DNA of 64,000 nucleotides from a virus. The notes beneath the pieces are model-generated. The model was not told the DNA's origin and ran no database searches. It worked only from the letters and a program-made list of their open reading frames with translations. This document shows, one piece after another, positions 1,559 to 40,400 of the stretch. Made by a program: the position numbers and the translations under genes. Location of the stretch: the IMG/VR virus record IMGVR_UViG_3300022885_000003, positions 1 to 64,000 of that record. One strand, 5' to 3'. Within the stretch, counting starts at the first letter, position 1, and each line of letters starts with the position of its first letter.

Positions 1559-1583
1559 AAAAAGCGGGCAATGCCCGCTTTTT
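1559..1583. terminator. Bidirectional intrinsic terminator
   Basis: AAAAAGCGGGCA-A-TGCCCGCTTTTT between convergent genes. Confidence 0.85.
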
Positions 1584-1606
1584 CTGTAATTGAAACCTAT
1601 CTATCT

Positions 1607-2560: not shown

Positions 2561-2564
2561 GACA

Positions 2565-4927: not shown

Positions 4928-4959
4928 TCTGTGTGATCCCGTCTATAATAGTATAAGTA

Positions 4960-4967
4960 TATTTATA
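4960..4967 (-). promoter_or_regulatory. Late promoter TATAAATA
   Basis: tatttata on the + strand, about 30 nt upstream of the start at 4927. Confidence 0.7.
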
Positions 4968-4989
4968 GTTTTCATTAAAAGGATTGGTA

Positions 4990-5967: not shown

Positions 5968-5980
5968 ATAATAGCAGTTA

Positions 5981-12420: not shown

Positions 12421-12711
12421 ATGAAAATCACAGTCGACAATTACAAGAATTTTGCAATTAACAAGGATGACAGTAACAATTATTCACACAACTGTACTCT
12501 GCATTTTCCGAACGGCAACATGCTTGGTGGTGTTGATCACTATATGAAGAAAAGCGTTAAGACGCTTATTGACTATTATGTCCGCCGTGCCTACAAAGAA
12601 GGTCTTCGGTGGTTTCCGGCTGGTCAATATACTGTAGAAGTTGAAACCAGTACAAACATTTGTTTTCCTGAGGGATTGAAGACGCACAAATTTACTTTTA
12701 CAATTGACTAA
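12421..12711 (+). CDS. Early hypothetical protein
   Basis: Strong promoter and RBS. Confidence 0.8.
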   Translation: MKITVDNYKNFAINKDDSNNYSHNCTLHFPNGNMLGGVDHYMKKSVKTLIDYYVRRAYKEGLRWFPAGQYTVEVETSTNICFPEGLKTHKFTFTID

Positions 12712-13211
12712 GATAATATCTTAGCTAAGATTCCTTTTTTCTTAATATTCTTTTTAGTACCAGAATTTTTGACTTTCTTGCAAAATGTATCTAAACTCTT
12801 GGCGAGAGTATCAAGACTGTTAAGACTGTTAAGAACAAGCTTTGCTATTTTAATTACCTTTTCATCTTCTTGGTCCAGACGATGGATATTATCCCTTAAC
12901 GTATTGGCTTGGTTCTTGACCTTTTCACTATAGTCTTGTAATGCAACAAATGCTTGCGACGAGGCAGTACCAGTTGATTCACTCAAAAGATGTTTTTCAA
13001 CTTTCTTTAATAGCTGTGCAAGTTCTCTTGCTGTACGAAAGATACTCATTATACCAATTGGTGCCGAACTGGGTTTAACCTCATTGAAGGTACTCATAGC
13101 ACGTAGACCAACAAGAAGTTGTGCTTGGACATTAGAAACAAACTTTGCTAATTGTTTGTTACTCATTGTGCTTTTCATCAATTGGCGTTCATGCAATTCT
13201 AAATATTTCAT
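12708..13211 (-). CDS. Leader-tagged (MKYLELHE) helical protein
   Basis: N-terminal leader; downstream of the late promoter at 13797. Confidence 0.75.
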   Translation of the reverse strand: MKYLELHERQLMKSTMSNKQLAKFVSNVQAQLLVGLRAMSTFNEVKPSSAPIGIMSIFRTARELAQLLKKVEKHLLSESTGTASSQAFVALQDYSEKVKNQANTLRDNIHRLDQEDEKVIKIAKLVLNSLNSLDTLAKSLDTFCKKVKNSGTKKNIKKKGILAKILS

Positions 13212-18904: not shown

Positions 18905-20521
18905 ATGAGAGCATATGAATTAATAGAAGGCGTATATGACCCACATATTTTCAAAGCCATTATTATGGCTGGTCCCCCAGGATCAGGTAAATCAACGGTT
19001 GCAAAGAAATTAACCGGTGGTTCCGGTCTTAAAATGGTTGATTCGGATTCCTTCTTAAAACTAGGCGTTAATGATCACACACAACGAGCTAAACTATCTT
19101 CCACGCAATTAGACAACTATATTGAAGGACGTTTAGGCGTCGTTATTGACGGTACTGGTCACAATGTTAATCGGATCCTAGAAACAAAACGTCTATTAGA
19201 CTTTCACGGTTATGATACAATTTTAGTTTTTGTTGATGTTGATCTTGAAAATGCACTATCAAGAAATACAAGAAGATCTAGAACTGAGAACCCACAATAC
19301 GTTTCCAAAATGTGGAATGAAATGGAAGCTAGGAAAGAGCAGCTACGCTCTGTTTTTGGTGGCAACATGGTAGTCGTTGATAATCGTCCAGGTGTTCAAA
19401 ACGATTGGAATCGAGGTTGGAAAGTTATAAAGAAATGGTTAGACCGAGACGTTAATACACCATATGCTCAAGATTGGAAACGAGAGCAACAGCAAAAAAA
19501 GTCGTTAGGCGAAGATTATAAAAGGTTAAAAAGGAAATCTACAGAAAAGTTTAGAGAATTGTATGAATTGTCATTAATGGATGGTAATGATATAGACATA
19601 GATGGTTTTTATAGGGATGCATATCCGTCTATTTTCTTTACTGAAGACTTTGACGATGAATCATTACACGATGCCATAAGCCCATGGATTATTGATGTTG
19701 ATAAACCAACGTTTGTGGTTGATATTTTCTACATGGGAGCATTAAATCGCCTGCAAATCGACATAGATAATTATAAATCTTCACCCTATAATATGCAACC
19801 AACAATCGAGAGCAAAAACATTGCTCATTTACATTTTGATAATGTTAAAGAATTACGATCATTTATAGTGTTAATGAAAACACAATTTGATGGCGATTAT
19901 AATCTAACGATCGACGATAGACGAAACAAATTAAATGAAGATTTGGATTCATCCCTGAACCCAATTGCTATGAATCAAGCAGATGCTGGTAAAGTTGTTG
20001 AGAAAATTAAAAAAGAATGCGGGCAGTATTTAGGAATGATTGATCCCAAAAAACACCACTTGTTTAGAGGGTTAAAATTACGAAATTATTTCGATGCTAT
20101 GGAAATACCTGGAACCAGGGAAAATAGAAAAGCATTAGATACATCAAATGATGTTAATAACGTCGTTATTAAAGCTATCAACGAAAATGGTTTAGTGGCC
20201 AATCGGAATAATAGTTGGTTCAGTACCGGTGATATAGATAGAGCAGATTTTTACGGGACCGTTTATGTTGCATTTCCAACAGATGGTTTCCACTATACTT
20301 GGTCATCGGATATCGACGATTTGTATAGTTTTTCATTGCAGAATGCCGAAGATGGATTACCAATTAATAAAATATACGAACTAGCTAAAAGAAGTTACCA
20401 AGGTGATGATGGTAGTTTATCCAAAGCAATCGAATTTGGTCATGAAATTATGTTTACTTCTCCTAAAGTTATCCTTGTCGACGAAAAATTTCATTACGAT
20501 TATATCAAGGATCAATTATGA
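18905..20521 (+). CDS. Leader-tagged (MRAYELIE) multidomain protein: zeta-toxin-like P-loop kinase, unknown domain, R-S-E-type ART-like domain
   Basis: GPPGSGKS and VVIDGT; C-terminal LFRG...WFSTG...FYGTVYVAFP...EIMF. Confidence 0.8.
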   Translation: MRAYELIEGVYDPHIFKAIIMAGPPGSGKSTVAKKLTGGSGLKMVDSDSFLKLGVNDHTQRAKLSSTQLDNYIEGRLGVVIDGTGHNVNRILETKRLLDFHGYDTILVFVDVDLENALSRNTRRSRTENPQYVSKMWNEMEARKEQLRSVFGGNMVVVDNRPGVQNDWNRGWKVIKKWLDRDVNTPYAQDWKREQQQKKSLGEDYKRLKRKSTEKFRELYELSLMDGNDIDIDGFYRDAYPSIFFTEDFDDESLHDAISPWIIDVDKPTFVVDIFYMGALNRLQIDIDNYKSSPYNMQPTIESKNIAHLHFDNVKELRSFIVLMKTQFDGDYNLTIDDRRNKLNEDLDSSLNPIAMNQADAGKVVEKIKKECGQYLGMIDPKKHHLFRGLKLRNYFDAMEIPGTRENRKALDTSNDVNNVVIKAINENGLVANRNNSWFSTGDIDRADFYGTVYVAFPTDGFHYTWSSDIDDLYSFSLQNAEDGLPINKIYELAKRSYQGDDGSLSKAIEFGHEIMFTSPKVILVDEKFHYDYIKDQL

Positions 20522-21123
20522 GATTTAATGAAATAATTTCAGAAGACAGTTTCGAATCATCGATAATTATTATCGATGATAATAGTAAAGATGTACAGAA
20601 AGTATCTGATTATATTAGACATAAGTGCCAGCAGTATCTATCTATGATTAATCCAAAAACTGATATCTTATATAGAGGTATTGAAAATCGTAGTCATTAC
20701 CATGCTATCGATATTACCGGTGAACGGAAAAATAGAAGTCCAATAGATTCATCTACTGAATTGCATAACAAAATCGATGATATGTTGTATGAACAAGGAT
20801 TCGTAGCTAGAAGAAGCAATAGTTGGTTTGGAACAGGGAATTTTATGACTGCTGGAGTTTATGGAAAAGTGTATGTAGCATTTCCTACTGATGGGTTTCA
20901 TTATACATGGTCTGATACAGTATCCGATCTTTTTACCTATTATCAAGAACATCGAACCAAAGGTATTGATTGGGTTGTTAATAGCATTAAAGACTCTTAT
21001 GAAAGCGACAATAATTCAATAAAAAATGCAATTCAATCGAAAAACGAAATTATGTTTACTTCACCAAGAGTAATACTGGTCGAGGACACTTTTTATCAAG
21101 ACGAGGTTAAATCTAGGTTATGA
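20518..21123 (+). CDS. Leader-tagged (MRFNEIISE) R-type ART-like protein
   Basis: LYRG...WFGTG...YGKVYVAFP...EIMF. Confidence 0.7.
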   Translation: MRFNEIISEDSFESSIIIIDDNSKDVQKVSDYIRHKCQQYLSMINPKTDILYRGIENRSHYHAIDITGERKNRSPIDSSTELHNKIDDMLYEQGFVARRSNSWFGTGNFMTAGVYGKVYVAFPTDGFHYTWSDTVSDLFTYYQEHRTKGIDWVVNSIKDSYESDNNSIKNAIQSKNEIMFTSPRVILVEDTFYQDEVKSRL

Positions 21124-21758
21124 AAGCAATTGAATTATACGAACATACGCCTTCAGTCTCTTCATTGATTATGCCGATTGTTCATTCGAATATCGATGAA
21201 TCTAGTATTTCTAAAGTTGTAGACGCTATTAATGAAAAATGTAGTCAATTTTTAGGAATGGTAGATCCAGTTAATGATGTTTTGTATAGAGGGTTTGATC
21301 GAAAGTCGACGCATTCTTCGCCGTTGGCATTTTATTTTGATGGTAAGCGAGAGAATAGAAAACCACTCAGCACACCTAATGCGTTCCATCAGAAAGTAAT
21401 TAAAATGATTAATTCCGCTGGCTTGGTTGCAAATCGTGATAACGGATGGTTTGCAACCGGAGATAGGAATGAGGCATATGGATATGGTGAAGTTTATGTA
21501 GTGTTCCCGAAAAATGGGTTCCATTATACATGGTCACGGTATATTGGCGATTTATATGCAGATTATGATGAAGCATCCATGACAGATGAAAGGATGGATG
21601 CATTTATGGAAAAAATAAAAGCTTCCTATGAGGGAGATAACGGGACATTGAAAGAAGCAATTCATTCAGGTAATGAAATTATGTTTACATCAGATACAGT
21701 TATAATGGTTAATCCCGATTTTTACCATAAATATATTGCTGCGAATCTAAATAAATAG
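21120..21758 (+). CDS. Leader-tagged (MKAIELYE) R-type ART-like protein
   Basis: LYRG...WFATG...YGEVYVVFP...EIMF. Confidence 0.7.
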   Translation: MKAIELYEHTPSVSSLIMPIVHSNIDESSISKVVDAINEKCSQFLGMVDPVNDVLYRGFDRKSTHSSPLAFYFDGKRENRKPLSTPNAFHQKVIKMINSAGLVANRDNGWFATGDRNEAYGYGEVYVVFPKNGFHYTWSRYIGDLYADYDEASMTDERMDAFMEKIKASYEGDNGTLKEAIHSGNEIMFTSDTVIMVNPDFYHKYIAANLNK

Positions 21759-21782
21759 TAAAATACAGTTTAGGGGATTATT

Positions 21783-22352
21783 ATGTTTTTGGTAGAGTTA
21801 TTTGAAGATCAACAGAAAAGCGCAGTCTTTTCATTCGGTCGCATGAATCCCCCTACTGTGGGTCACCAAAAACTTATGCAGAGAGTTATGGACCTTGCAT
21901 CTGAAAAAAATGCTGATGTATTTATTGTCCCATCTAAGACGCAAGATAAAAAGAAAAATCCCTTATCATTTGAACAAAAGAAATATTTTATTGAAAAGAT
22001 CTATGGGTTTCCGGTTTACGACAACCCAACTATGAAATCCCCATTTCAAATGGCTGGTTGGCTCGGAGAGCAAGGTTATAAGGACGTAACCTTTGTTGTT
22101 GGTTCTGATCGAGTAGAGGCTTTCAAAGGGATCGAAGAGCATTATGCAAAAGACTTTGGTGGAATATTCAAAGTAGTTTCTGCTGGAGAGCGTGATCCCG
22201 ATGCCGATGGAGTAGAAGGTATGAGTGCTTCGGTAATGCGTGAGTTCGCCAAAGAAGGCAATATGGCAAGCTTTATGAAGGGCCTTCCACCCGAAACTAA
22301 AATTGGTATTGCTAAAGAATTGATGATAGCAGTAAGGGATGGTTTGAAATGA
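21783..22352 (+). CDS. Leader-tagged (MFLVELFE) HxGH nucleotidylyltransferase (cytidyltransferase/NadD-like)
   Basis: FGRMNPPTVGH, NPL, VVGSDR, MSASVMR. Confidence 0.85.
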   Translation: MFLVELFEDQQKSAVFSFGRMNPPTVGHQKLMQRVMDLASEKNADVFIVPSKTQDKKKNPLSFEQKKYFIEKIYGFPVYDNPTMKSPFQMAGWLGEQGYKDVTFVVGSDRVEAFKGIEEHYAKDFGGIFKVVSAGERDPDADGVEGMSASVMREFAKEGNMASFMKGLPPETKIGIAKELMIAVRDGLK

Positions 22353-23212
22353 GATATATAGAATTATCTGAATCAATAACAGCATATCATGGTTCAAGCA
22401 ATGAACACCAAGGATTTGATACAAAGCATACAGGTGATAATAGTCATACATTTGGTAGTTACAATACTGATCGACATGGCATATTCTTTAGTTTAAATCC
22501 GAAATTTGCTGCCATGTATGGAGACGTTATTCAATATGAACTGAATATTAATAACACTACCAATCTTGATAAGAGTCTTGATATAGTTGCTGCCTTTGCA
22601 GATCAAACAACTGACCGAGGAATAAGGATGGATGCTCAAAATGTTTTATATAAACATTGGAGCGTTTGGCAATTATTCGAAGATGATCTGGGTAAAGAAT
22701 TTGTAACATTTTTAAAAGATCAAGGGTACGATTCAGCCACATTTACCGAATATAACGAAAATGATGATGGGAAGGAAATTGACGGAAAGACAATTGTTGT
22801 TTTCAATCCAAGCAAAGTTATAAAGCATGGACAGCTTGAATTGGATTTATATGAGAACACTGATGAATTTAGTTCGTTAACCATTGAAGAGTTTATGTTG
22901 TATATTGAAAATAAATATGATGTAAAACAGTTCTTTGTTTCTAATTATAAAACAAACATTATCAAACTTGATAATATTATTGTTGGTGATAAGAAGCGGG
23001 GCACTGGTACAGAAATTATGAATGATCTTATTACTTATGCCGATGATAATCATAAAATGATTATATTAACCCCAGCAGTAGCAGATGATCGACATGGTAC
23101 AACTTCTAGATCTAGGCTTGTAAAATTTTACAAGAGATTTGGATTTTATGAGAATAAGGGTCGGAAGAAAGATTTTAGTCTTCCTTCCGGAATGATAAGG
23201 GATCCACAATGA
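22349..23212 (+). CDS. Leader-tagged (MRYIELSE) His-type ART domain plus GNAT acetyltransferase
   Basis: AYHGS...GIFFS...AAMYG...GYDS...IVVF; then KKRGTGT.IM...LVKFYKRFGF. Confidence 0.8.
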   Translation: MRYIELSESITAYHGSSNEHQGFDTKHTGDNSHTFGSYNTDRHGIFFSLNPKFAAMYGDVIQYELNINNTTNLDKSLDIVAAFADQTTDRGIRMDAQNVLYKHWSVWQLFEDDLGKEFVTFLKDQGYDSATFTEYNENDDGKEIDGKTIVVFNPSKVIKHGQLELDLYENTDEFSSLTIEEFMLYIENKYDVKQFFVSNYKTNIIKLDNIIVGDKKRGTGTEIMNDLITYADDNHKMIILTPAVADDRHGTTSRSRLVKFYKRFGFYENKGRKKDFSLPSGMIRDPQ

Positions 23213-23883
23213 GATATCAAGAATTATATGATTGGGAACAGTTATCGGCGTCTAATTTCGTTATGCCAAAAATGTCTGGATCTTATATCGACAAAGCATC
23301 ATGTGGGAGGGGGACATACCATATATATGTGGATATTAATATACCCCAAAAATATTATTGGGCTATAGATCCCAATACCAATATACCTATATGCTTTATT
23401 GGTTTATTACAATTTGGTAAATATTATATGATAAAGAATGCATTTTCTAGTATTCAAGGAAAAGGTCTAGCTACATCTTTGATTGACTATGTTATTGATG
23501 CAGAAAACACAATGTTTTTCTCTGATACACAAATGAGTTTAGCTGGAGAAGCGTTAACACGAAAGTTGGAACAGCGTTCATTAACTAGAATAGTAAACCT
23601 GAATACTCTGGAAATATTTGATAAAACTGATGTTAATCAAAAACAATCTAACGATGGTGAAATGGTTACGCATCCAAAAAACGATACGCGCACGACACCG
23701 CAAGACTTTGGTAATATTCAACATAATGAACAACGTTGGGTATTTGTATTTGAAAATATAATAACAGAAACTAAAAAATATTCAAGCAACCAACCCAAAT
23801 TATTAAAATTTGACGTTCCTGAAAAAGGATATTCTAAAGATAGTTTATTGATACCACTTGTTAGATATACAGAGGGCCCATAA
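23209..23883 (+). CDS. Leader-tagged (MRYQELYD) GNAT-like protein
   Basis: IQGKGLATSL acetyl-CoA loop; FSDTQMS.AG. Confidence 0.6.
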   Translation: MRYQELYDWEQLSASNFVMPKMSGSYIDKASCGRGTYHIYVDINIPQKYYWAIDPNTNIPICFIGLLQFGKYYMIKNAFSSIQGKGLATSLIDYVIDAENTMFFSDTQMSLAGEALTRKLEQRSLTRIVNLNTLEIFDKTDVNQKQSNDGEMVTHPKNDTRTTPQDFGNIQHNEQRWVFVFENIITETKKYSSNQPKLLKFDVPEKGYSKDSLLIPLVRYTEGP

Positions 23884-24500
23884 TGAGATACGAAGAATTA
23901 ACTGAAGGTAAAAATACTCCTTGCATTGTTGTTGATGTGCAACCAGAGTATACTGGATTAAATGACGGTAACGAACTTCCGTGGATCGACGAGATGATGG
24001 CGTTTCTTAATAAACAAACAGGCCCCATATTAATGTTTGTTAATGCTGAAGACCAAATGATGTCAGGTGATACTATTGACGATGTTAACGTATACTGGGA
24101 AGATTCCGGATTTGATCCTAGCAATTGGGATAGAGTCCAAGTTGTCGATAAGGGATATGGTTATTTTAGAGCATGGATGGATTCAGGTGTTCCTGAATCG
24201 GGTATCATTAAAACAATACGAGCAATGTATCAACAGAAAATTACAGACTCTAGAGAATTATTTAATGGGGAAGATGACGAAAACTATATTGAAAACATGA
24301 ACCAATTATTAGGGAATGATGATTGGGTTTCATTATATGATGATGGATTAAGTGTTGAATGGACATCAGTTGGACAATTAAAACGATTCTCTGGTGCTTA
24401 TATTATGGGTGGTGGTAGAGATGAATGCCTTCGAGAAGTTGAGTTATTGATGAATGCATTTAACATTAAATACAAACGTATAGAGGACTTTGTTTACTAA
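23883..24500 (+). CDS. Leader-tagged (MRYEELTE) isochorismatase/nicotinamidase-like cysteine hydrolase
   Basis: IVVDVQ (Asp), VDKG (Lys), GGGRDECL (Cys) triad pattern. Confidence 0.65.
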   Translation: MRYEELTEGKNTPCIVVDVQPEYTGLNDGNELPWIDEMMAFLNKQTGPILMFVNAEDQMMSGDTIDDVNVYWEDSGFDPSNWDRVQVVDKGYGYFRAWMDSGVPESGIIKTIRAMYQQKITDSRELFNGEDDENYIENMNQLLGNDDWVSLYDDGLSVEWTSVGQLKRFSGAYIMGGGRDECLREVELLMNAFNIKYKRIEDFVY

Positions 24501-24868
24501 TGAGAGCAATAGAGTTATATGAAAATAATATAGATATCGATTATTATATGGAGGAAGGATGTGGTATCTGGGCGGTAGCTCATGCTTTAAAAAACAATGG
24601 AAAGGTTTTAACTCTATACAACCCCGAAGGAGAAGCCTGGGATAATCAAACACATGAAATTACGCATGTGGTATCAATTGTTGATGGTAAAGCACATGAT
24701 GTCCTGGGAAGTTATAATCATATATCGGAAATTGATAAAAGATTCGGTAACTTGCAAATGGGAGATTCTTATAAACCCAAAGAATTTTTAAAGAAATTTA
24801 TGGGCGATAGTGATGACAAACCATTATATGGTGATATGAATGATGTTAAAGAAGTAATAGGTGTATAA
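24500..24868 (+). CDS. Leader-tagged (MRAIELYE) Cys-His-Asp (papain/transglutaminase-like) protein
   Basis: GCGIWAVA...THVV...HDVLG. Confidence 0.55.
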   Translation: MRAIELYENNIDIDYYMEEGCGIWAVAHALKNNGKVLTLYNPEGEAWDNQTHEITHVVSIVDGKAHDVLGSYNHISEIDKRFGNLQMGDSYKPKEFLKKFMGDSDDKPLYGDMNDVKEVIGV

Positions 24869-24871
24869 AAA

Positions 24872-25423
24872 ATGAGATACGAAGAATTAACTGAAAGCCG
24901 ATAGAAAACAGTTTACCACGGTGATAATTTTGGTACTACTTCATTGGAGCCTTCGTTAATGAATAACGGAAATAACCAAGAAGGTATAGGAATTTATTTT
25001 ACTGACAAATTAGAAACAACAGATACTTATGGTTTAAATGTAATTTCAGCTATAATAAATCAAGATAGATTTCTTAATAGCCGAGATACAGTAGATATAA
25101 TTGGAGTTCAACAAATAACCAAATTATTAAAAGCATTATGGCCATCTGATGAAGAAGCAATGTTTTATTGGATATCTGATTATATACCGTTGTCTGTACC
25201 AGAAGAAGTTGAAGAACATCATTTAGAAGAATTCGCTGGAAAGGTAGGATCTAGCGAAATTAGAAATTTTCAAATCGAATTAGCAAGTAATTTTGGTGTA
25301 GAAAATATGGTTAAAGCATGGAATGATATCTTAAATATTGATGGTACTTATTATCCATACATAGAAGGTGAAATATGGTACGCAATTATAAACCCCGAAA
25401 TTCAAGTAACGGTGATAAAATGA
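24872..25423 (+). pseudogene. Leader-tagged (MRYEELTE) His-type ART-like gene interrupted by in-frame TAG at 24902-24904
   Basis: MRYEELTESR*KTVYHGDNF continues in frame into ORF 24944 (EGIGIYFT...TYG). Confidence 0.8.
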
Positions 25424-25815
25424 GAGCAATAGAATTAACAGAAAATAAATTTTATCATGGAACATCGTCTTGTCTCTTAGAAACTATTAAAGAGGATGGG
25501 TTTTCTTCTCCATCATATTTTGTTAAGGATTTTGATGTAGCGTCTGAGTATGCAGCAATGGGTGGAGAATGGGATTTGCAGGATCGAGAAGAAAAATATG
25601 AAGAAAAATATGGCACCCCACCTAGAGAAATATTTGATGTTTGGGAAATGTATGAGAAATTGTATCCCGTTGGATGCTATCCCATCGTAATTGAAGTTCT
25701 AATACCAAATAATGTAATGCAATTTGCTGATGCTGGTGGCCATGGTTCAGAAGCAATATCATTAAATAATTGCAGTGGTGTTAAAATAAATTCAATACAT
25801 AAGGTTAAATGGTGA
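25420..25815 (+). CDS. Leader-tagged (MRAIELTE) His-type ART-like protein
   Basis: FYHGTS...I..DG...YF.....ASEYA...IVIEV. Confidence 0.7.
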   Translation: MRAIELTENKFYHGTSSCLLETIKEDGFSSPSYFVKDFDVASEYAAMGGEWDLQDREEKYEEKYGTPPREIFDVWEMYEKLYPVGCYPIVIEVLIPNNVMQFADAGGHGSEAISLNNCSGVKINSIHKVKW

Positions 25816-25821
25816 TTCAAA

Positions 25822-26478
25822 ATGAGAGCAATAGATTTATATGAAAACAATCACAAGGAAGAAATAGTCAGGGCATGGAGTCTCATACAACGAGACTGTC
25901 AACCTTTCCTTCTGGAATCTAATAATAAACCATTATATCGTGGCATAAATGATCTAAATACGGTTGAGTCTAGAGTTTCTTTTACCAAACTAACTGTTCA
26001 TCAAGAACGTATACCACGAGACACTAATCCATTTGAACATGAATATGTTATTAAAGCTATGAAAGATGCTGGGTTTAATGCACATCGCGGCAATTCAATA
26101 TTTTGTCAAGCTAGTACAGTTGGACTATATGACTATGGTGAAGTTTATGTCATATTTCCAATTGGTGATTTTAATGTTACATGGTCTAATGTGATAGTAG
26201 ACTGGACCGAAGATGGAAATATATACTAATTTGTTACGAATCACAAAGAGCATCCTGGATTTGTGTCAAAAGAATCCATCGTTGATATGCCAGGATTTAC
26301 AAGATGGATCGATGCAAATTACATTGATGGTCATTTGGCGGAAGCAATAGAAGCCAAACATTACGAGATAATGATCAATTGTAAGGAATATTATGCAGTT
26401 CTATATAAATCTCATAATAGCCAACAAATGTGGGATTATCAAGATATGAAGGAGGTGGTCAATCATGAGAGCAATTGA
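25822..26478 (+). pseudogene. Leader-tagged (MRAIDLYE) R-type ART-like gene interrupted by in-frame TAA at 26227-26229
   Basis: ORFs 25822 and 26263 are in the same frame and together align with paralog 29763 (EIMINCKEYYAVL...HESN). Confidence 0.8.
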
Positions 26479-27241
26479 ACTATACGAATACCATGAAACT
26501 TCACCTGTAATTATTTCGCCCGATATAATTAAGAAAATCAAATCCGAGTGTTCAATTGCTTTATCCAAGGATCCAATATATCGAGGGTTAAATCAGTCAA
26601 ACGATATATTATATGGAAATCCAATAAAACCGAGATCGTCTGCAAACACATATAACTATTACACAACGATATTAGATGAGTTACCATCGTGGCAAAAATT
26701 CCCAAAGAGATCATTGTCATGGATTTGCTCTACTTCAGAAAATACAGCATCGGGATATGGGACCGTCTATCGTGTTTTACCGGTCAATAACCCTTTGATA
26801 TCTATTGCATCAAGTGATGATTTATGGTTTTCTTTCTCTGAGGGATTACATCGAACCCTGTCTGATATTCATGTGTATGACCTATTCGATTTTAGTAGAT
26901 TATTACATGATATATTCGCAATTGGTAGACGTAACGGTGTTTCAGTTAATGTTAAATCTTTAGGTGATATGAATAATACCATTGAACTGATTATCAAGCA
27001 GAATGAAATCGAATCAATTACCCGTTATGAGAGATATCAAGAGTTTTTCACTTATGTACAAAAAGCCGGTAGCTTCATAAACTTAGTAAGCACACTTTTC
27101 GACCCAAAAATTAACCATATAGAGTTGGTCGACTTGAATAAATTTATCGCTGCACCATCTCGAGAGGTATGGTTTACTGGTCCAGCATATTTCATTCAAA
27201 ATACCCATTGGGGGAAGATGTTTAAGAATAAATATCAGTAA
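26465..27241 (+). CDS. Leader-tagged (MRAIELYE) R-STS-E ART-like protein
   Basis: IYRG...WICSTS...YG.VYRVLP...REVWF. Confidence 0.75.
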   Translation: MRAIELYEYHETSPVIISPDIIKKIKSECSIALSKDPIYRGLNQSNDILYGNPIKPRSSANTYNYYTTILDELPSWQKFPKRSLSWICSTSENTASGYGTVYRVLPVNNPLISIASSDDLWFSFSEGLHRTLSDIHVYDLFDFSRLLHDIFAIGRRNGVSVNVKSLGDMNNTIELIIKQNEIESITRYERYQEFFTYVQKAGSFINLVSTLFDPKINHIELVDLNKFIAAPSREVWFTGPAYFIQNTHWGKMFKNKYQ

Positions 27242-27255
27242 TATTGGAGTTTAAA

Positions 27256-28023
27256 ATGCGCGCCATCGAATTATATGAATATCATGAAACAAAAGAAGTT
27301 ACGCCTTCTCCTGAAATTATTCAGAAAATTAAGAAAGATTGCGCATTTGCATTGAAAGGCAGTAGACCAATATATCGTGGTATGGAAACACACTTAGATT
27401 TTATGTATAGTAATACACCAGAAATTCCCAGAGAGTCTGCTAATACACATAACTATTATACTATACTTATGGATGAATTACCAAGCTGGTCATCATTTCC
27501 AAAACGTTCTCTATCATGGATTTGCTCAACTAGTCGATTTACGGCTTCTGATTATGGTAATCTTTTCCGAGTATTACCTGTCGGAAATCCTGATATTGTT
27601 ATTGCAGATAAAGAAGATTTATGGTTTAGTTTTATTAAAGGGTTATCGTTAATAAGCGTAGAACTCGAAGATATGGACGAGTTCAATCAAACTATTTCGA
27701 TAATTATCAATAAAACCGATAATCAACCCCCAAAGACATTAAAGTCTCTTGCTTCGATAATTGATCAAGCTGCTCATAATCAACAAAATGGTTCAAAAAT
27801 CGTCGATGAATGGAGTAGCGCGGAAGTAGCCGCGCACGAATTACTCAATGAAGTTAATCAAAAGGGTGGGTTTGTTTCACTTATGAACAATGTATTAGAT
27901 CCAGAACTAAATGATTTCTATATTACCAAATTAAATAATCTTTATGATAAAACTAGTGAAGTATGGTTCAGTGGTCCGGCTTATTTCTTATCACTTGATA
28001 TTTGGAATAATTATTTTGAATAA
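27256..28023 (+). CDS. Leader-tagged (MRAIELYE) R-STS-E ART-like protein, paralog of 26465
   Basis: IYRG...WICSTS...YG.LFRVLP...SEVWF; has its own TAAATA and GGAG. Confidence 0.75.
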   Translation: MRAIELYEYHETKEVTPSPEIIQKIKKDCAFALKGSRPIYRGMETHLDFMYSNTPEIPRESANTHNYYTILMDELPSWSSFPKRSLSWICSTSRFTASDYGNLFRVLPVGNPDIVIADKEDLWFSFIKGLSLISVELEDMDEFNQTISIIINKTDNQPPKTLKSLASIIDQAAHNQQNGSKIVDEWSSAEVAAHELLNEVNQKGGFVSLMNNVLDPELNDFYITKLNNLYDKTSEVWFSGPAYFLSLDIWNNYFE

Positions 28024-28057
28024 CTTCATTAATTATAATGTAATAAATAGTATTACT

Positions 28058-28471
28058 ATGAAACTAGATGATATTGATAAAGATAAAATTATAAAATTTC
28101 CTGGGAGAACATCCAGGGACGTAAAGGAAGAACGCGCAAAATTTAATTTAATCATTAAGGAATTGGTCACATTACAACTTGAAAAGGAAAAGCAACCTGA
28201 ACGTTCACAAGCGATAATACGTGGACTCAAGACGGAATACTCAGGATTAATGGCTCGGTTTGTTTCACAAATGTTATATCTCTTGGAAATAAAAGGTGAT
28301 GAAGAACAGTTCCTAGATATGGTTATGAGTGCTAAATGGGACGATATACGTAAAGAGTTTTTAGAACATAAAATTGATATATTTAAGAAGATATATGGAA
28401 TTCTTCGTAACCATACAACTGCAAGAGCAGCGGAATTAGGGATAAGGATTGTAAGAAATGAGAGCATATGA
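28058..28471 (+). CDS. Helical hypothetical protein with weak or no leader (MKLDDID)
   Basis: Start placed just after TAAATA at 28044-28049. Confidence 0.6.
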   Translation: MKLDDIDKDKIIKFPGRTSRDVKEERAKFNLIIKELVTLQLEKEKQPERSQAIIRGLKTEYSGLMARFVSQMLYLLEIKGDEEQFLDMVMSAKWDDIRKEFLEHKIDIFKKIYGILRNHTTARAAELGIRIVRNESI

Positions 28472-29168
28472 ATTATTTGAAAAGGTTGTACAAACAGATC
28501 GATATAATTATCGTGGTTATAAAATTGTTTTCCAATTGGAGCCTGATTCCCAAGGAAAATATATTGGTCAGATTTTCGGAGACAATGCCCCAAAAGAGCA
28601 ATTTGAAAATACAGACTTAGAAGATCTTAAACGGGATATGGAAAATACTGTTAATCAATTAGAAGTTGATGCCAAAAGAAACATGTTAGTTCGTCGAGAT
28701 GTAGTAGATTCAAATGCCATACGACGGGTTGCATTAAATTATAATACACAATTTACAAGACAAATACTCGATAATGAAATACCAACAGCAACTAGATTAA
28801 TGTTTGTAAATGGTCAAGCATACTTAGATGTGATGACAAGAGAAGCGTTTGAAGTGTTTGGTGAAGAACTCAAATCAGTTGGATTTACTAAAATTTCCGA
28901 TCGGCAATGGTCAAAGAGTGAAGGTGCCACAAAAATATTCGGGGTTTCTAATGTTAATCCAAAGTTAATAGATCAAATGAATTTAGAATTCCACGGCGTT
29001 TATGAATTAAAAGTAGGACAATCACCTGATCCCGAAATGTTTACACGTTATGAATTGGATCAATTGGGTTACAGTGATAAGGATATGTCATATCCGGTTC
29101 CTGCCGTAACAATTGCATTCTGGTACAAAGACGGAAAGTATTCAGAGGAATCAAATGCGAGCAATTGA
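28458..29168 (+). CDS. Leader-tagged (MRAYELFE) protein of unknown function
   Basis: Leader present; 236 aa. Confidence 0.75.
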   Translation: MRAYELFEKVVQTDRYNYRGYKIVFQLEPDSQGKYIGQIFGDNAPKEQFENTDLEDLKRDMENTVNQLEVDAKRNMLVRRDVVDSNAIRRVALNYNTQFTRQILDNEIPTATRLMFVNGQAYLDVMTREAFEVFGEELKSVGFTKISDRQWSKSEGATKIFGVSNVNPKLIDQMNLEFHGVYELKVGQSPDPEMFTRYELDQLGYSDKDMSYPVPAVTIAFWYKDGKYSEESNASN

Positions 29169-29766
29169 ATTATATGAAACTCGACTCGAAATAGGATTTG
29201 AGCTACTACAGAAATTCAAAAGCATGGATGAGATTGGTGAGTTCGCTGGAAAAATTCAAGAAGATTGTTCCGATTTTCTATCCATACGAGGAACCGGCTG
29301 GCTTTATCGAGCAACCGACGATATCGGTAATCAAATTGGAATTGCATCACCTACTCCGGATCGCCCACCTCTTCATACTCCAAGAGAGGAGCATAATAAT
29401 GCGGTTCATTGGATGAAAAAGAATGGGGCTATTGCAAGGCGAGATAATTCTTTTTTCTGCTATAATAATCCATATGACACTGAAAATTTCGACCATGTAT
29501 ATGGCAATCGAATCTATTCAGTTGTGCCTATAAATGGATTTCATTATACTTGGTTTGATGGGGTTAATGATTTTACAATGCAGGGTCCCAAGGCAGGAAG
29601 ATACGATACTATGGATGAATTCGCAAAAGATCACCCAATACATGTCGATGAGGGATTGTCTCATGCGTTGAGTAATCCTGATAATTCTCCCGAAATTTTA
29701 ATACAAGGTCGTTGTTATTTTATACAAGAAAGCATTTTTGAAGATATGTTTAAGGATAAATTATGA
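29155..29766 (+). CDS. Leader-tagged (MRAIELYE) divergent R-type ART-like protein
   Basis: LYRA...ARRDNSFFC...YG..IY.VVP..FHYTW...EILI. Confidence 0.65.
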   Translation: MRAIELYETRLEIGFELLQKFKSMDEIGEFAGKIQEDCSDFLSIRGTGWLYRATDDIGNQIGIASPTPDRPPLHTPREEHNNAVHWMKKNGAIARRDNSFFCYNNPYDTENFDHVYGNRIYSVVPINGFHYTWFDGVNDFTMQGPKAGRYDTMDEFAKDHPIHVDEGLSHALSNPDNSPEILIQGRCYFIQESIFEDMFKDKL

Positions 29767-30446
29767 GAGCAATTGAATTATTTGAATCAGACGATATATC
29801 AATGAAAGAAGCTTGGAAGTTAATTCAACGCGATTGCCAACCATATCTCAGTCTTAAAGCCGATGATTTATATTTGTATCGAGGTATCGCGGAAATACAA
29901 TTTAATCCAAGAACATCTTTTCGTAAACTTCCAGTTAGACAAGATCGCCGACCCCTTGATTCAAACATAGATGACCATAATATTACTAATGCGGCAATGC
30001 AGGCGGCTGGATTTAAAGCATATAGAGGAAATTCGATTTTTTGCAGAACAACCCATGAAGGACTTGGTAACTATGGTTTACTTCATATGATTTTCCCAAT
30101 CGGAAACTTTAATATATCTTGGTCCCCTTCAGTTGGTGATTGGAACAACAATGGGCCAAATATTATCAATGATAATATTGAAGTCGATGAAGATACAACC
30201 ACAAACAAAAAAAACTCAATAACATTAAGTGATGGTGAAAAGGTAGTTTATGACAATTTAGTTGATTGGTTCGAAGATCATTATAAGGATAATGATTTAC
30301 AATACGCAATGGAAGACAGCCCCAATTCAGAAATCATGATTAATTGTAAAGAATACTATGCGGTTTTATTTGATAGTAGTAAATTGAAAAATAATATATG
30401 GGACTCATTTGAGTTAACGGAGATAATAGAACATGAAAGCAATTGA
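29763..30446 (+). CDS. Leader-tagged (MRAIELFE) R-type ART-like protein
   Basis: LYRG...RGNSIFC...YG....IFP...EIMI. Confidence 0.7.
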   Translation: MRAIELFESDDISMKEAWKLIQRDCQPYLSLKADDLYLYRGIAEIQFNPRTSFRKLPVRQDRRPLDSNIDDHNITNAAMQAAGFKAYRGNSIFCRTTHEGLGNYGLLHMIFPIGNFNISWSPSVGDWNNNGPNIINDNIEVDEDTTTNKKNSITLSDGEKVVYDNLVDWFEDHYKDNDLQYAMEDSPNSEIMINCKEYYAVLFDSSKLKNNIWDSFELTEIIEHESN

Positions 30447-30963
30447 ATTATTTGAAAATACCGAACTACAATGGAATAAGAATCCCCAGATTGGATGGTG
30501 GCTTGATAATGATCCGGTAACTTTTTATCACGGAACTCATATGCGCAATATTGAAGGTATTCTAAAGCATGGTATTTTTGCTCCTTCTGAAGGACCGACT
30601 GCTGGAAAGGTGAGCCTTGCCTTAGATCCCTATACCGCCTTTGGATACGCTGCAATGGGCGGAGATGGCGGCGAATCAAGTTTTCGTGGTGCAGGTCAGA
30701 AAGCTAAAACTACACCACCGAGTGATCGGGTTGTTTTTGTATTAGAAATCCCACAAAATTATTTCCTTCCGAGAATGGTTGATGCTCGAAGTTCTATGAC
30801 GGATCAAGCTGGAAAATTAGATGATCGAAGGGAATATGAAAATTTCAAACGGACAGCAATTGCACCAAATAATACAGATCATCTTTATTACGCATTAACC
30901 GAAATACGTTTACCAGAACATGTTCCTGCAGAGTTTATTAAAGGATATATGTTCAAGAAATAA
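30433..30963 (+). CDS. Leader-tagged (MKAIELFE) His-type ART/Tpt1-like protein
   Basis: FYHGT..NI.GIL..GI...SLA.D...A.GYA...TEIR....VP. Confidence 0.7.
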   Translation: MKAIELFENTELQWNKNPQIGWWLDNDPVTFYHGTHMRNIEGILKHGIFAPSEGPTAGKVSLALDPYTAFGYAAMGGDGGESSFRGAGQKAKTTPPSDRVVFVLEIPQNYFLPRMVDARSSMTDQAGKLDDRREYENFKRTAIAPNNTDHLYYALTEIRLPEHVPAEFIKGYMFKK

Positions 30964-33285: not shown

Positions 33286-33358
33286 GCCGCTATAGCTCAG
33301 TTGGTAGAGCGGGTGATTTGTAATCACCAGGCCCGTGGTTCGAATCCTCGTGGCGGCA
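33286..33358 (+). tRNA. tRNA-Thr(UGU), CCA not encoded
   Basis: Acceptor GCCGCTA/TGGCGGC, D arm GCTCAGTTGGTAGAGC, anticodon arm GGTGA-TTTGTAA-TCACC, T loop TTCGAAT. Confidence 0.95.
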
Positions 33359-33441
33359 CTCATTTCGCTGGCGGCGTTTCTCCTTGACATGTTATAATAT
33401 CTTTTATACTATATACCGGAACAGATATAGAAAGATTCAAA

Positions 33442-35396: not shown

Positions 35397-35776
35397 TAGC
35401 AGGATTTACAGGAACACAAAGCACAATGTCAACGGATCAATTTGATCGATTAGTTAAATTATGCAAAGATTATAAAATAACCGAATTGCATCACGGTGAC
35501 TGTGTTGGAGCCGATGCAGTTGCACACGATATTGCGGAATCACTTAACATTCGAACCGTAATTCACCCACCAATTAAACCATTCAAACGGGCGTTTAAGA
35601 AGGGTGATATGATATTGCCGATGAAAGATTATTTGGTCAGAAACCGAGACATTGTTAATGCCTCGGAAATTCTGTTTGCTTGCCCCAAAGGACCAGAAGA
35701 ATTACGTTCAGGAACTTGGTCAACGGTTAGATATGCTCGGCGAGTTAAGAAACCAATTGAAATTGTTATGCCTTAA
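35393..35776 (+). CDS. SLOG/DprA-like Rossmann-fold protein
   Basis: GFTG, HHGDCVGAD, RNRDIV, SGTWSTVRYA. Confidence 0.8.
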   Translation: MIAGFTGTQSTMSTDQFDRLVKLCKDYKITELHHGDCVGADAVAHDIAESLNIRTVIHPPIKPFKRAFKKGDMILPMKDYLVRNRDIVNASEILFACPKGPEELRSGTWSTVRYARRVKKPIEIVMP

Positions 35777-38700
35777 CTATTGTCTTTCTGTTCAGACTTC
35801 AAGCAACCATATGTTTCAACCGTTTCACCAGTATTTGCATTTTTAGATTCAAGAATAACATCAAATCCCCATAACGTATGAACATGTTTTAACATTTCAT
35901 CGGTATTATTATTCAATGGTATTTCATTTCTCATATAATGTGTTAGATACAATGTACGGTCTCCAAGTATATCGAAATCCGTAATCTGAATATCTGGAAG
36001 AATGCGATTAAGCTGATATTGCTTAGATAGAATTGATCGAACACGTTTGAAACCATAATCATCGTGAATGTTACTTACATCATATACTGGTCTTTTATTA
36101 TTATCATGAAGACTAAACAAATGCATCTTACGAATCAAGTGCGGTGATAGATATTGCAAAATAAATGATTCATCTTTGAAGTTTTCCATTGCATAATTTA
36201 ATGTAGGGAGCCAGGGCTGACCAACAATACTTGGAAACCATTCTTCATCTTCTTTAGTTGGCTTTTCACACATTCTTTTGATATCATGGAAGATATTGAA
36301 TCCAAGATAATACGGATTAAAACCACCTTGATAATATGGTGAATCAAAATCTGGCTGGAATACAACACCAGAGTGACTCTTTAGAAATTCAAGCATATTT
36401 CCATCCGAAATTCTATCCTGTTCCCATAAATCATACATCAAATGGTGATGCCAAAAACTTGCCCACCCTTCGTTCATAACTTTTGTATTATGGGATATTA
36501 ATCCATCAGTCCAAAATAAATGATTTTCTGGAACAGTTACATCATATACCCATTCTATATTTCCCTTTTCTATACTTACTATTTCATCATAATAATTATT
36601 AGATGCATTGCTTATTAATTCTAATGCTTCTTTTATTTTCGGATGACAATCTTTAATTTTTTCTAAACGTTTAATTAAGCAATATGATATTTGCTCAATC
36701 GCTACGTTATTTAGAGATAGATTAGGGAAGGCATCTAAACAATCTAATCCGGTATCTTTTAATAACAAATTATTTTTTACCTTATATGCGTAATTACTCT
36801 TTTGGTAGTTATCAGTAGCTGTATGGGCAATCTGTAATTTTTTAATAGCAGCCTTGGCTTCGATTAATACTTCTTTTCCGTTAGGAATAACTCTATTACC
36901 TTTTAGTAGTTTGATTTTAGACCGCTTAGTTCCTATTTCATCATAGAACTTGTTAGTAAAATCTGAATATATTTTTAAAGAATAATCAACGGCTTTAATA
37001 TCTTCACAATCCGGAATATTTAAAGCAAATGCAATAGACTCGAATGATTCTCTTTCTTTTATGTTGACTTTTGGTATTATACCGAAACCAGTCAGTATTA
37101 CTGATAACGTTTGTAAGTCATCATAATCGTCAGAATAACCGGCGATGGCAATGTTACCACGTTCATACGATTTTTTTGAAATTCTGGTATCAAAGAAACC
37201 ACTTAGATATTCTTTCATGTATTCTTTTTTCAAACTAAGAACAAACTTTGGTAATTCATGTCTTCTAGTTATAGATATATTTTTAAACCATATGTCTTTT
37301 AACATCATAGAAGCAAATTCGACTTTATACGACGAATAATATTCTTTAGATTTAACAACAATGCCAAACACTTTGTTGAGTAAATGAACAACGTCATCTG
37401 CTATTTCTTTTGTATCTGTAACGAATTTAAATAAAGATGCCGTTCGTCTATAGTCTGTAATAGTAGCACCCGATAAATAACCAAATAACCTGGCCGAATC
37501 ATTATTAAAATGTGTAGGCATTTTCGTTATTTTGTTTTTTGACATAGTTAATTTATATTCGTCTGAAATACAACTACCATATTCTTTTTTGTAAAAATCT
37601 ATATCGATACTATGCCGTTGTACAATATGACTTGCAATCGAGGAAGATTGTAAACCACATATCTTACATTCGATAACATCTAAATTATATTTAGGATATT
37701 TTATTTCTACTTCTTTATGCCCGAATATATCATAATCTAATTTATAAACAAGATATTCACCAGGACTCATATCCTCTAAACGCGTCATACATACTAAACC
37801 ATTATTAGATAATACTTGTAATGGGTGTTCAGGAGTGGCTGTAAAGGTTCTACCAGATTTAGTAGTTATTTTAAATGTGTCAGCTTGTTTTTTATATGTA
37901 TGAGAAATAGCTGTCGTTTTATTGCCTTCGGTTAATAAATTAAACCCAGGATGTTCTGCGATTCCTTCTGTTACGATTAGGTCTTGTAATCTAATTAAAC
38001 CATTTTCATTACTAACAAAATGATTACCAGTAAGACACTGCATTTGTGGATAAAAATACTGAGCCATTTTGCGGACGATGCGGACAATTTCACGCTGCCA
38101 CTGTTCAAGTACAGGACTATTTTTCTCAATGAAATATAAAAGGTTTTCTTGTGGTTCGCTCAAGAATTTTTTCTTTCTGGCGTCTTGATCTTCCTTCTTC
38201 GTTGGTGGAAGCGTTTTCCATAAGTCATCAACTTGGCTTTGTCGATAAGTTTCTCTATCTTGTTGCCTTAATAATTCTTTAGACTTGGAAAGCTTACGTG
38301 GCTTTTTATAGCGGTCGACACCATGATTCATAAGTGCGTGACATGAATCAAGTGTCTCTTCGACCTTTTCCTGGCCATAACGTTCTTCACATTGTTTGAT
38401 ATAACGGCGGGCGAAAACTACATAATCAATGATTGCATCAGCATCAGTCCATTCTTTAAACAGGAAATTGTTCTTAAAGAAATTATTGTGGCCATAGCCG
38501 GCATGAGCAATAACCAATGTTTGCATAGTCATGCTGTTCTCTTCCATAAGATAATTGATGGTTGGGTTAGAGTTAATAACAATCTCATATGCCAATCCCA
38601 TTGCGCCTCTTTTATAATTTTGTTCATCATGGAGGAACCTTTTTCCATAACTCCAGTGGTGATACATATTTGGCATACCAACGGAAGTATATGCATCCAA

Positions 38701-38844
38701 CATTTCAGCTGAGCCGATAATTTCGTACTGATTAGGATAACAGTCCATGCCATATGTTCCTATAGCGATATCGGCAATCGCTTTGTCAACTTCAGCAATC
38801 TTTTCAAATGTCCAATCATTGTTTGTATATAATAACTTACTCAT
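35773..38844 (-). CDS. ycgB: SpoVR/YcgB family protein containing an intein
   Basis: GMP.MY.HWS.GK, GLAYEIVINS.P, HAGYGHN.FFKNN, YFYPQ.Q|TKVMNEGWASFWH; exteins total 506 aa. Confidence 0.93.
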   Translation of the reverse strand: MSKLLYTNNDWTFEKIAEVDKAIADIAIGTYGMDCYPNQYEIIGSAEMLDAYTSVGMPNMYHHWSYGKRFLHDEQNYKRGAMGLAYEIVINSNPTINYLMEENSMTMQTLVIAHAGYGHNNFFKNNFLFKEWTDADAIIDYVVFARRYIKQCEERYGQEKVEETLDSCHALMNHGVDRYKKPRKLSKSKELLRQQDRETYRQSQVDDLWKTLPPTKKEDQDARKKKFLSEPQENLLYFIEKNSPVLEQWQREIVRIVRKMAQYFYPQMQCLTGNHFVSNENGLIRLQDLIVTEGIAEHPGFNLLTEGNKTTAISHTYKKQADTFKITTKSGRTFTATPEHPLQVLSNNGLVCMTRLEDMSPGEYLVYKLDYDIFGHKEVEIKYPKYNLDVIECKICGLQSSSIASHIVQRHSIDIDFYKKEYGSCISDEYKLTMSKNKITKMPTHFNNDSARLFGYLSGATITDYRRTASLFKFVTDTKEIADDVVHLLNKVFGIVVKSKEYYSSYKVEFASMMLKDIWFKNISITRRHELPKFVLSLKKEYMKEYLSGFFDTRISKKSYERGNIAIAGYSDDYDDLQTLSVILTGFGIIPKVNIKERESFESIAFALNIPDCEDIKAVDYSLKIYSDFTNKFYDEIGTKRSKIKLLKGNRVIPNGKEVLIEAKAAIKKLQIAHTATDNYQKSNYAYKVKNNLLLKDTGLDCLDAFPNLSLNNVAIEQISYCLIKRLEKIKDCHPKIKEALELISNASNNYYDEIVSIEKGNIEWVYDVTVPENHLFWTDGLISHNTKVMNEGWASFWHHHLMYDLWEQDRISDGNMLEFLKSHSGVVFQPDFDSPYYQGGFNPYYLGFNIFHDIKRMCEKPTKEDEEWFPSIVGQPWLPTLNYAMENFKDESFILQYLSPHLIRKMHLFSLHDNNKRPVYDVSNIHDDYGFKRVRSILSKQYQLNRILPDIQITDFDILGDRTLYLTHYMRNEIPLNNNTDEMLKHVHTLWGFDVILESKNANTGETVETYGCLKSEQKDNS
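36487..38037 (-). mobile_element. Intein (517 aa) with degenerate LAGLIDADG-type endonuclease and C2H2 finger
   Basis: Starts CLTGN; block B TATPEHP; ends VYDVTVPENHLFWTDGLISHN with +1 Thr; internal LFGYLSG and YLSGFFD; CKIC...H....H. Confidence 0.92.
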
Positions 38845-40120: not shown

Positions 40121-40284
40121 TGGAAGCCTCCTTACCATTGGGGGAATAGTTATTACAATACTATTTATTATTTTGGAAAATAGTTCATTCGATTTCATGC
40201 AATTTTATTTTAATAACGCTATGTTTTTTAATAATAAATAAAAGATAACATTAAAATTATGTTATATAATACCCATTAACTCCA

Positions 40285-40316
40285 CCCCGGGCTTACTTTT
40301 GCCCGGGGTCTTTTTT
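40285..40316 (+). terminator. Intrinsic terminator on the + strand with no obvious upstream gene
   Basis: CCCCGGGC-TTACTTTT-GCCCGGGG-TCTTTTTT. Confidence 0.7.
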
Positions 40317-40339
40317 GACTTAAATTCTAATCAAATTAC

Positions 40340-40372
40340 AAAAAAGCCCCAGGATTATGTCCCAGGGCTTTT
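40340..40372 (-). terminator. Terminator downstream of prkA
   Basis: AAAAAAGCCC...GGGCTTTT. Confidence 0.7.
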
Positions 40373-40400
40373 AAGTTGTAATGTACGTATTTTATTACTT

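Follow-up and report, generated by a model that had tools for sequence, protein, structure and literature searches.

A recurrent N-terminal leader in a gene array of an uncultured giant phage: a probable head-loading propeptide whose overlapping stop codons are largely a by-product

Introduction

In phage T4, internal proteins are loaded into the prohead core by capsid targeting sequences (CTS), which are N-terminal propeptides of 10–19 residues, and the protease gp21 removes such propeptides by cutting after L/I-x-E (PMC9026906). Here we describe a dense gene array in a window of 64,000 nt, which comprises the first 64 kb of the 114,738-bp virus contig IMGVR_UViG_3300022885_000003 (IMG/VR; genome completeness estimate 31%). 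The array is located on the plus strand at 18905–30963 and comprises 18 genes plus a gene fragment; over 12 kb, every gap is 34 nt or shorter. Seventeen of the array genes start with variants of the peptide M-R/K-x-x-E-L-x-E (consensus MRAIELYE), in the following called the leader. We propose that the leader is probably a T4-style N-terminal tag that loads enzymes into the phage head and that the stop codons contained in its DNA are a by-product.

The features in common with the T4 system (propeptides of IPI, IPII, IPIII, Alt and gp24; PMC9026906, PMC3012670) are a short N-terminal peptide on unrelated proteins with a hydrophobic-x-Glu end, ADP-ribosyltransferase (ART)-like cargo and a late-looking promoter motif, and Agrobacterium phage Atu_ph07, a relative of this phage, encodes a protease of the gp21 family and has homologous proteins in its virions. 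In contrast to the 10–19 residues in T4, the leader has 8 residues and another sequence, and its packaging and cleavage are predicted here; furthermore, T4 has a handful of tagged genes, whereas this phage has 17 in a single array and no fewer than 23 on 115 kb. A second described system are the polyvalent proteins known from phages and from conjugative elements (PMC5512222), which have in common with this locus ART-PolyVal and zeta-type kinase domains, a predicted entry with the DNA and multi-copy fusions (up to 2,645 aa for the main cargo family, termed family A). However, a polyvalent protein is one giant polypeptide, whereas mostly separate leader-bearing genes are present here. If the tag loads the head, about twenty enzymes would be sent into the host with the DNA, an arsenal far larger than that of T4, and the tag could become a packaging handle for giant-phage engineering.

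The leader peptide and its putative cargo

Leader genes amount to at least 23 on the 115-kb contig, as at least six dispersed copies add to the 17 of the array, with six located on the minus strand (starts at 3584, 13211, 86933, 87691, 92790 and 95033). Matches to the leader motif with at most three mismatches were seen 14 times compared to 4.5 expected, and none of 100 shuffles reached 14. A scan of the contig placed the leader only at N-termini and never within long frames. The tagged bodies form at least six unrelated groups. One short N-terminal peptide common to otherwise unrelated proteins is a mark of a T4-type CTS, and most leaders have L-x-E, the gp21 cleavage motif, at residues 6–8. 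The N-termini of T4 used for comparison are MELITELFDE of Alt and MAKINELLRE of gp24.

We assume that the 24-nt leader encodes an eight-residue propeptide M-R/K-x-x-E-L-x-E, which would act like the capsid targeting sequences found on T4 internal proteins and on Alt and would steer enzymes that are otherwise unrelated into the prohead during its assembly. A prohead protease probably removes the propeptide by cutting after the last L-x-E, and the cargo would then enter the host together with the DNA. This cargo set would comprise about nine ART-fold proteins of family A, four ART-like proteins of the YHG type, one kinase of the zeta/AAA_33 type and one nucleotidyltransferase. Observed were the junction geometry and codon statistics reported below, the breadth of family A, the ART-like fold of its model and, in a relative, homologous array products in virions; for this phage we infer packaging, cleavage and ejection as well as the enzyme activities.

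Family A includes the C-terminus of 18905 and the products of 20518, 21120, 25822, 26465, 27256, 29155, 29763 and 86933. A search of the array genes yielded no Pfam match for this family, and its approximately 9,000 sequence clusters (8,942 cluster representatives at E ≤ 1e-3) have neither a Pfam model nor a described function. Among the best 150 matches, residue 2 is R or K in 127, residue 5 is E in 96 and residue 6 is L or I in 111. Family A is also found in fused forms, with as many as five copies in one protein of 2,645 aa, and the linkers carry LNE|S, VNE|S, VIE|S and LKE|S. An AlphaFold (AF2) model of the 20518 protein reached a predicted local distance difference test (pLDDT) score of 92.5, with residues 1–7 being disordered. 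In VIA-align this model was closest to BC2332 (Z 6.3), Arr (4.7) and PE-like and cholix toxins (3.9–4.5), followed by PARPs and DarT, and exotoxin A was among the neighbors. Conserved in the family are R53, R73, R99, N101, F104, Y115-G116 and E177. At modest scores, the predicted structure indicates an ART-like fold for family A. An identical copy of the 20518 protein is encoded on a 407,795-bp contig and a 68%-identical homolog on a 7.3-kb contig.

Pfam matches of the array were obtained with AAA_33/Zeta_toxin in 18905, CTP_transf_like in 21783, ART-PolyVal in 22349 (PF18760; 33.3 bits, above the gathering cut-off of 31.2; E 9.9e-8) and a weak PARP motif in 30433. Sequence searches of PDB chains with 30433, 23883 and the A1 profile returned nothing significant. 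In the protein encoded by 18905, a P-loop kinase is fused to a family-A domain, and the joint holds a decayed leader, NKLNE, which aligns with MRFNE of the next gene. The same kinase/family-A fusion is present in a JGI homolog (P0003).

Homologous proteins in Atu_ph07 virions

The contig is present in salt-lake metagenomes and belongs to an uncultured giant phage. Through a YeaG-like kinase (40401–42335, minus strand) the contig is connected with Ralstonia phage RsoM2USA and with metagenomic phages of about 635–640 kb, and through an array protein with Atu_ph07 and again with RsoM2USA. A megablast search with the whole array against 50,697 phage records gave zero matches. In Atu_ph07 the family-A profile was found at 13 places, twelve of them in one block at 41.5–50.2 kb. 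This block contains a 13-gene array (AUZ94865–AUZ94877) that corresponds by molecular weight, to 0.01 kDa, to gp53–gp65 of the virion proteome (PMC6102473 Table S5). All of gp53–gp65 were found in purified Atu_ph07 virions by electrospray ionization tandem mass spectrometry (ESI-MS/MS), with 3–31 unique peptides (PMC6102473 Table S5). Eleven of the 13 array genes start with M-R/K-W-x-Q/D-L-x-E (or M-R-L-F-Q-L-L-E); the products with a leader are gp53–gp63, to which gp408 has to be added. The latter belongs to a second pair, gp407 and gp408, which was matched by molecular weight in the same way and is also part of the virion proteome (PMC6102473 Table S5). The authors listed these virion proteins as hypothetical (PMC6102473), and the published virion proteome of a relative already holds members of family A, unrecognized as such. 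Furthermore, Atu_ph07 encodes a homolog of Peptidase_S77 (gp21; E 2.4e-22), and proteins of its head module bear N-terminal hydrophobic-x-Glu sites.

Junction geometry and translational coupling

According to the original prediction, the leader DNA is self-punctuating and supplies the stop codon of the upstream gene in either shifted frame. Ten junctions indeed end the upstream gene inside the first 14 bases of the leader. Six of them are 4-nt ATGA overlaps (20518, 21120, 22349, 23209, 25420 and 29763), and the other four are 14-nt overlaps in which nt 12–14 of the leader form the upstream stop (26465, 28458, 29155 and 30433). As described, the upstream products of the latter end with HESN, NESI, NASN and HESN, which is leader DNA read in the +2 frame, but they are not all unrelated: in the HESN pair, 26263–26478 forms the C-terminal part of a paralog of 29763–30446 that is split by a nonsense codon (46% identity over 59 aa, E 8e-13). 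Three of the ATGA junctions (20518, 21120 and 29763) come after paralogous family-A C-termini ending L-stop (TTATGA). Because of the paralogy of the HESN pair and of these three C-termini, the ten junctions do not represent ten independent events, and judged from sequence about half of them (five) may have been inherited through tandem duplication. The leader of 27256 (ATGCGCGCCATCGAA) has no stop of either frame in its first 15 nt and is preceded by a 14-nt spacer with GGAG and by TAAATA at 27228, all in agreement with the prediction; a +2-frame TGA is located further in, at nt 21–23. Two further junctions are 1-nt TAATG overlaps (23883 and 24500), which brings the overlapping junctions to 12 of 18.

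The leader had also been regarded as a coupling signal. Coupling itself is real and is documented by the overlaps and by a Shine-Dalgarno (SD)-like tetramer 4–20 nt before 17 of the 18 starts, inside the upstream coding sequence (background 20%). In a translationally coupled operon, stop and start codons are expected to overlap or abut and the SD sequence to lie within the preceding gene, and ATGA and TAATG stop-start overlaps are the usual form of translational coupling in phage and bacterial operons. What the array shows is ordinary translational coupling: the 4-nt and 1-nt overlaps and the SD inside the upstream gene are those of coupled operons in general, the Atu_ph07 array is built in the same way, with six overlaps of the ATGA type, two of the TAATG type and two gaps of 1 nt, as is a more distant array with a different leader (L067), and eight ATGA overlaps are found at genes that have no leader. 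In contrast, the 14-nt overlaps are longer than usual, because the conserved leader sets where the +2 frame stops. Overlap with the preceding gene was found for 15 of 23 leader genes vs. 20 of 138 other genes. The four spaced starts (18905, 21783, 27256 and 28058) are preceded by the late-promoter-like motif TAAATA, which suggests about four late transcription units. The array would thus be transcribed as dense late units in which the SD of every gene is expected to sit in the 3' end of the preceding gene. Programmed frameshifting into fusion proteins was considered and rejected, as inspection by eye revealed no canonical slippery heptamer at the ATGA junctions. At 20507–20521, 29752–29766 and similar junctions, AAGGAT represents both the conserved C-terminal Lys-Asp codons of family A and the SD of the next gene.

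Codon statistics of the leader

For the question of whether the punctuation is selected, genome codon usage was taken from 130 long open reading frames, and the expected number of stops was obtained by redrawing the codons of the real leader peptides from this usage. A +2-frame stop within the first 15 nt is present in 12 of 23 leaders compared to 13.6 expected (P 0.85), and ATT serves as the Ile codon behind the second TGA in 5 of 10 leaders vs. a fraction of 0.55 genome-wide. The second stop, being at expectation, is thus accounted for by an Ile, Tyr, Phe or Asn residue ahead of Glu. The first stop (ATGA) is enriched, with 20 of 23 leaders vs. 11.7 expected, and this enrichment is entirely due to AGA at codon 2, which has a frequency of 0.80, whereas gene bodies show 0.27 and codons 2–8 of other genes 0.40. 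The codon-bias check suggested by the original prediction was thus split, as AGA is above genome usage and ATT is not preferred, and it speaks mostly against a selected punctuation. Two codons that make no stop are equally enriched (GCA 0.91 vs. 0.38; TTA 0.76 vs. 0.33), and of the 16 leaders whose TGA serves no upstream gene, 13 nevertheless have ATGA. In addition, the tandem paralogs 26465 and 27256 are identical in their first 12 residues and differ in 7 of 11 degenerate codons; twelve residues kept on diverged codons mean that the constraint acts on the peptide.

Taken together, the ten junctions described above stand, but the codon statistics do not support the claim that they reflect a selected DNA signal. 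The stops lent to upstream genes are mostly a by-product of the leader amino acids and of ordinary overlapping junctions. We assume that the peptide dictates A/T-rich codons, i.e. Arg or Lys after ATG and an Ile, Tyr or Phe codon before Glu, and such codons would place stops in both other frames, so that an intruding upstream frame ends within 14 nt. The residual bias toward A-ending codons may stem from common ancestry, from local conversion or from A-rich starts being favored, which are inseparable here. The failure of the narrower claim that the leader evolved as punctuation spares follow-up work on what is an effect of codon composition.

Weighing the proposed packaging tag against the alternatives

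Several points weigh against a head-loading tag. The scores for the ART fold are modest (Z 3–6.3), and a Foldseek search of the 20518 model against the PDB gave no clear match. Pfam searches for gp21 and gp23 revealed no head genes or protease on the 115-kb fragment, which covers roughly 31% of the genome; in these searches the named control genomes gave no match either. The link to a protease is thus drawn by analogy from relatives, and presence in the virion is extrapolated to this phage from the Atu_ph07 data; that proteome shows presence in the virion, neither removal of the leader nor location in the head. At the nucleotide level, AGA at codon 2 is above the 5'-end usage of other genes (0.80 vs. 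0.40), and some nucleotide-level pressure on the leader may exist. Finally, the excess of overlaps among leader genes needs either a history of tandem duplication or selection for tight coupling.

The best surviving alternative is that the leader DNA is selected as punctuation and microhomology, at which cassettes are gained, lost and shuffled by homologous crossover without a dedicated recombinase. It starts from the observations that 10 of 17 junctions end within the leader and that ATGA exceeds the expectation from codon usage, but the second stop is at expectation, ATT is not preferred, the AGA bias is matched by the non-stop codons GCA and TTA, ATGA stands also where it is unused, and half of the junctions are possibly inherited by duplication. 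More specific to exchange is the finding that the 24-nt leaders of 23883 and 24872 are identical, as originally noted, on bodies without detectable similarity. Furthermore, leader DNA of genes two to three positions apart is slightly more alike than when the gene order is shuffled (three tests, P about 0.01), synonymous variants are shared across body families (e.g. ATA at 24500, 25420 and 25822), and the occurrence of the leader on at least six unrelated body families points to repeated joining of leaders and bodies. On the other hand, leader codons diverge freely between tandem paralogs, and for homologous exchange to be efficient, an imperfect repeat of 24 nt is short. Four other salt-lake runs contained no joints, indels or structural variants, at a depth of about 1–5 that gives low power and leaves uncovered parts uninformative. 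The contigs of these runs are short, and 103 of 111 match at 99% identity or more. Several of them start or stop a few bases from a leader (24497–24516, 26459 and 28469), which may be chance at depth 1–5.

A precedent for such exchange is given by the internal protein (IP) loci of T-even phages and by the PeSL cassettes, together with T4 recombination on patches of less than 50 bp (PMC2839356). The T-even IP loci are described as shuffling modules at conserved flanking elements (Repoila 1994 and Comeau 2007, as cited in PMC2839356). Common to these loci and the array are variable genes flanked by a short conserved repeat with expression signals, and exchange by the phage's own recombination has been proposed for them (PMC2839356). 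However, their repeat is an intergenic promoter plus stem-loop of about 100 bp, whereas the repeat of the array (SD, ATG and 24 nt) lies within coding sequence, and neither mini-circles nor indel breakpoints nor variants were seen here, in runs at depth about 1–5. An integron-like system, which would have a site-specific integrase and attC-type sites flanking its cassettes, is not indicated either: the only repeat at the cassette boundaries is the coding leader, and general Pfam and PHROGs scans of the array genes and ten large genes of the window found no integrase, with the rest of the window unscanned. We consider it unlikely that selection for punctuation and microhomology explains the leader.

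A related proposal that leaves the head-loading tag in place fares slightly better, and we put it forward tentatively as somewhat unlikely. With a protease site at its end and stops in both other frames, the leader could act as a nearly neutral joint for fission, fusion and crossover, at which one indel or a crossover between two leaders would interconvert separate cargo genes and polyproteins or place a new body behind the tag, with the mature packaged products unchanged; this would amount to evolvable, recombinase-free cassettes. The decayed internal leader of 18905, the five-copy family-A polyproteins with h-x-E|S linkers and the identical or neighbor-like leaders on unrelated bodies fit this proposal.

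That the leader sorts proteins to a destination other than the capsid, i.e. another part of the virion or a host compartment, or that it is a regulatory tag such as a degron, seems very unlikely to us. The Atu_ph07 proteome places the proteins in virions with no location within the virion given, and virions of this type bear many hair-like appendage proteins (PMC6102473), which leaves room for another address, but the likeness to the Alt and gp24 propeptides of T4, the L-x-E end and the enzyme-like cargo argue for the head, and the leader is acidic and hydrophobic and has no signal-peptide character.

We give hardly any credit to a leader that functions mainly in the mRNA, as an A-rich unstructured start that aids initiation or re-initiation in a coupled operon with the peptide being secondary: the junctions are tightly coupled and third-position A reaches 0.65 in leader codons 2–8 compared to 0.43 in codons 2–8 of other genes and 0.32 in gene bodies, but the peptide is kept in thousands of distant homologs on different codons (CGT, TGG and CAR in Atu_ph07), it heads isolated genes with their own promoter-like motif and spacer, and 27256 retains it on G/C-ending codons.

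Organization of the array

The array opens with the kinase/family-A fusion gene (18905–20521; leader MRAYELIE; AAA_33/Zeta_toxin in Pfam and PHROGs; TAAATA at 18867), which is followed through ATGA overlaps by the family-A (ART-like fold) genes 20518–21123 (MRFNEIIS) and 21120–21758 (MKAIELYE). After a 24-nt spacer, the cytidylyltransferase-like gene at 21783–22352 (Pfam CTP_transf_like) starts with the variant leader MFLVELFE, with TAAATA at 21747 and 21751. The ART-PolyVal gene (22349–23212; MRYIELSE) overlaps it by ATGA, and the C-terminal part of its product resembles the PHROG of a polyvalent protein with 3925 positions. Three genes without an assigned family come next, namely 23209–23883 (MRYQELYD; ATGA overlap), 23883–24500 (MRYEELTE; 1-nt TAATG overlap) and 24500–24868 (MRAIELYE; 1-nt TAATG overlap).

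In the YHG-motif frame at 24872–25423, the leader MRYEELTE is followed by an in-frame TAG at codon 11 (24902–24904) and then by an open frame. Gene 24872 probably encoded cargo and was inactivated by this nonsense codon; in another run, a contig that spans the TAG region shows no difference. A small YHG-motif gene (25420–25815; MRAIELTE; ATGA overlap) separates it from the second interrupted gene, the split family-A paralog of 29763 at 25822–26478, in which TAA at 26227–26229 is codon 136 and the frame is then open to 26478, its C-terminal piece (26263–26478) ending with HESN within the next leader. Recoding of TAG or TAA was rejected. Each in-frame stop occurs only once and TAA, TGA and TAG are all used as stops genome-wide, and therefore nonsense mutations are the simpler reading. 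The two genes with single in-frame stops suggest a birth-and-death turnover in the array.

The long family-A gene 26465–27241 (MRAIELYE; 14-nt overlap) and its tandem paralog 27256–28023 (45% identity; own spacer, GGAG and TAAATA) follow. The next gene, 28058–28471, has no canonical leader (MKLDDIDK); TAAATA is located at 28043 and its product ends with NESI within the leader of 28458–29168, a gene without assigned family (MRAYELFE; 14-nt overlap) whose product in turn ends with NASN within the following leader. Two family-A genes, 29155–29766 (MRAIELYE with CGA for Arg; 14-nt overlap) and 29763–30446 (MRAIELFE; ATGA overlap; HESN end within the next leader), precede the last array gene at 30433–30963 (MKAIELFE; 14-nt overlap), which has a weak PARP/Tpt1-like YHG motif. 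Outside the array, a leader gene is located on the minus strand at 2565–3584 (MRSYELFE) and a leader-like gene at 12708–13211 (MKYLELHE), also on the minus strand.

Related loci and neighboring genes

Viral contigs were searched for related loci with 18905, A1, A2, P0014 and P0022, and metagenome contigs with A2. These searches returned only a 3-kb distant relative with the leaders MRINEI and MRLNEF (L064) and a 29%-identical array (L067). The latter (IMGVR_UViG_3300045825_000531, 886–6590) is a distant family-A array with a different N-terminus, KFxxFLxE, and with 4- and 8-nt overlaps. A search with the exact leader DNA led to 38 contigs, every one with one orthologous MRAIELYE-metallopeptidase gene and none with an array. 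In these IMG/VR contigs of other large phages (L011–L048; e.g. L011 at 9249 on the minus strand, L013 at 2048 on the plus strand, L042 at 5621 on the minus strand and L045 at 4226 on the plus strand), the tagged HExxH metallopeptidase-like gene follows the motif cATAAATActaat. Its product has forms of 191, 317, 357 and 379 aa, and the longer ones have an insert that resembles by eye the helix-turn-helix of sigma-70 region 4. A complete 348.7-kb phage of this group has about three leader-like genes and no family-A match.

Downstream of the array, three large consecutive genes occupy 35773–42335 on the minus strand. The YeaG/PrkA-like kinase (644 aa) is 68% identical to a gene of phage LAU1 annotated as YeaG, and next to it come a 453-aa protein matching the PHROG "sporulation protein" and then a 1,023-aa protein without assigned function. 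The trio may represent a phage version of the yeaG-yeaH-ycgB stress module of bacteria. The sole tRNA of the window, a tRNA-Thr (TGT), is located at 33286–33359.

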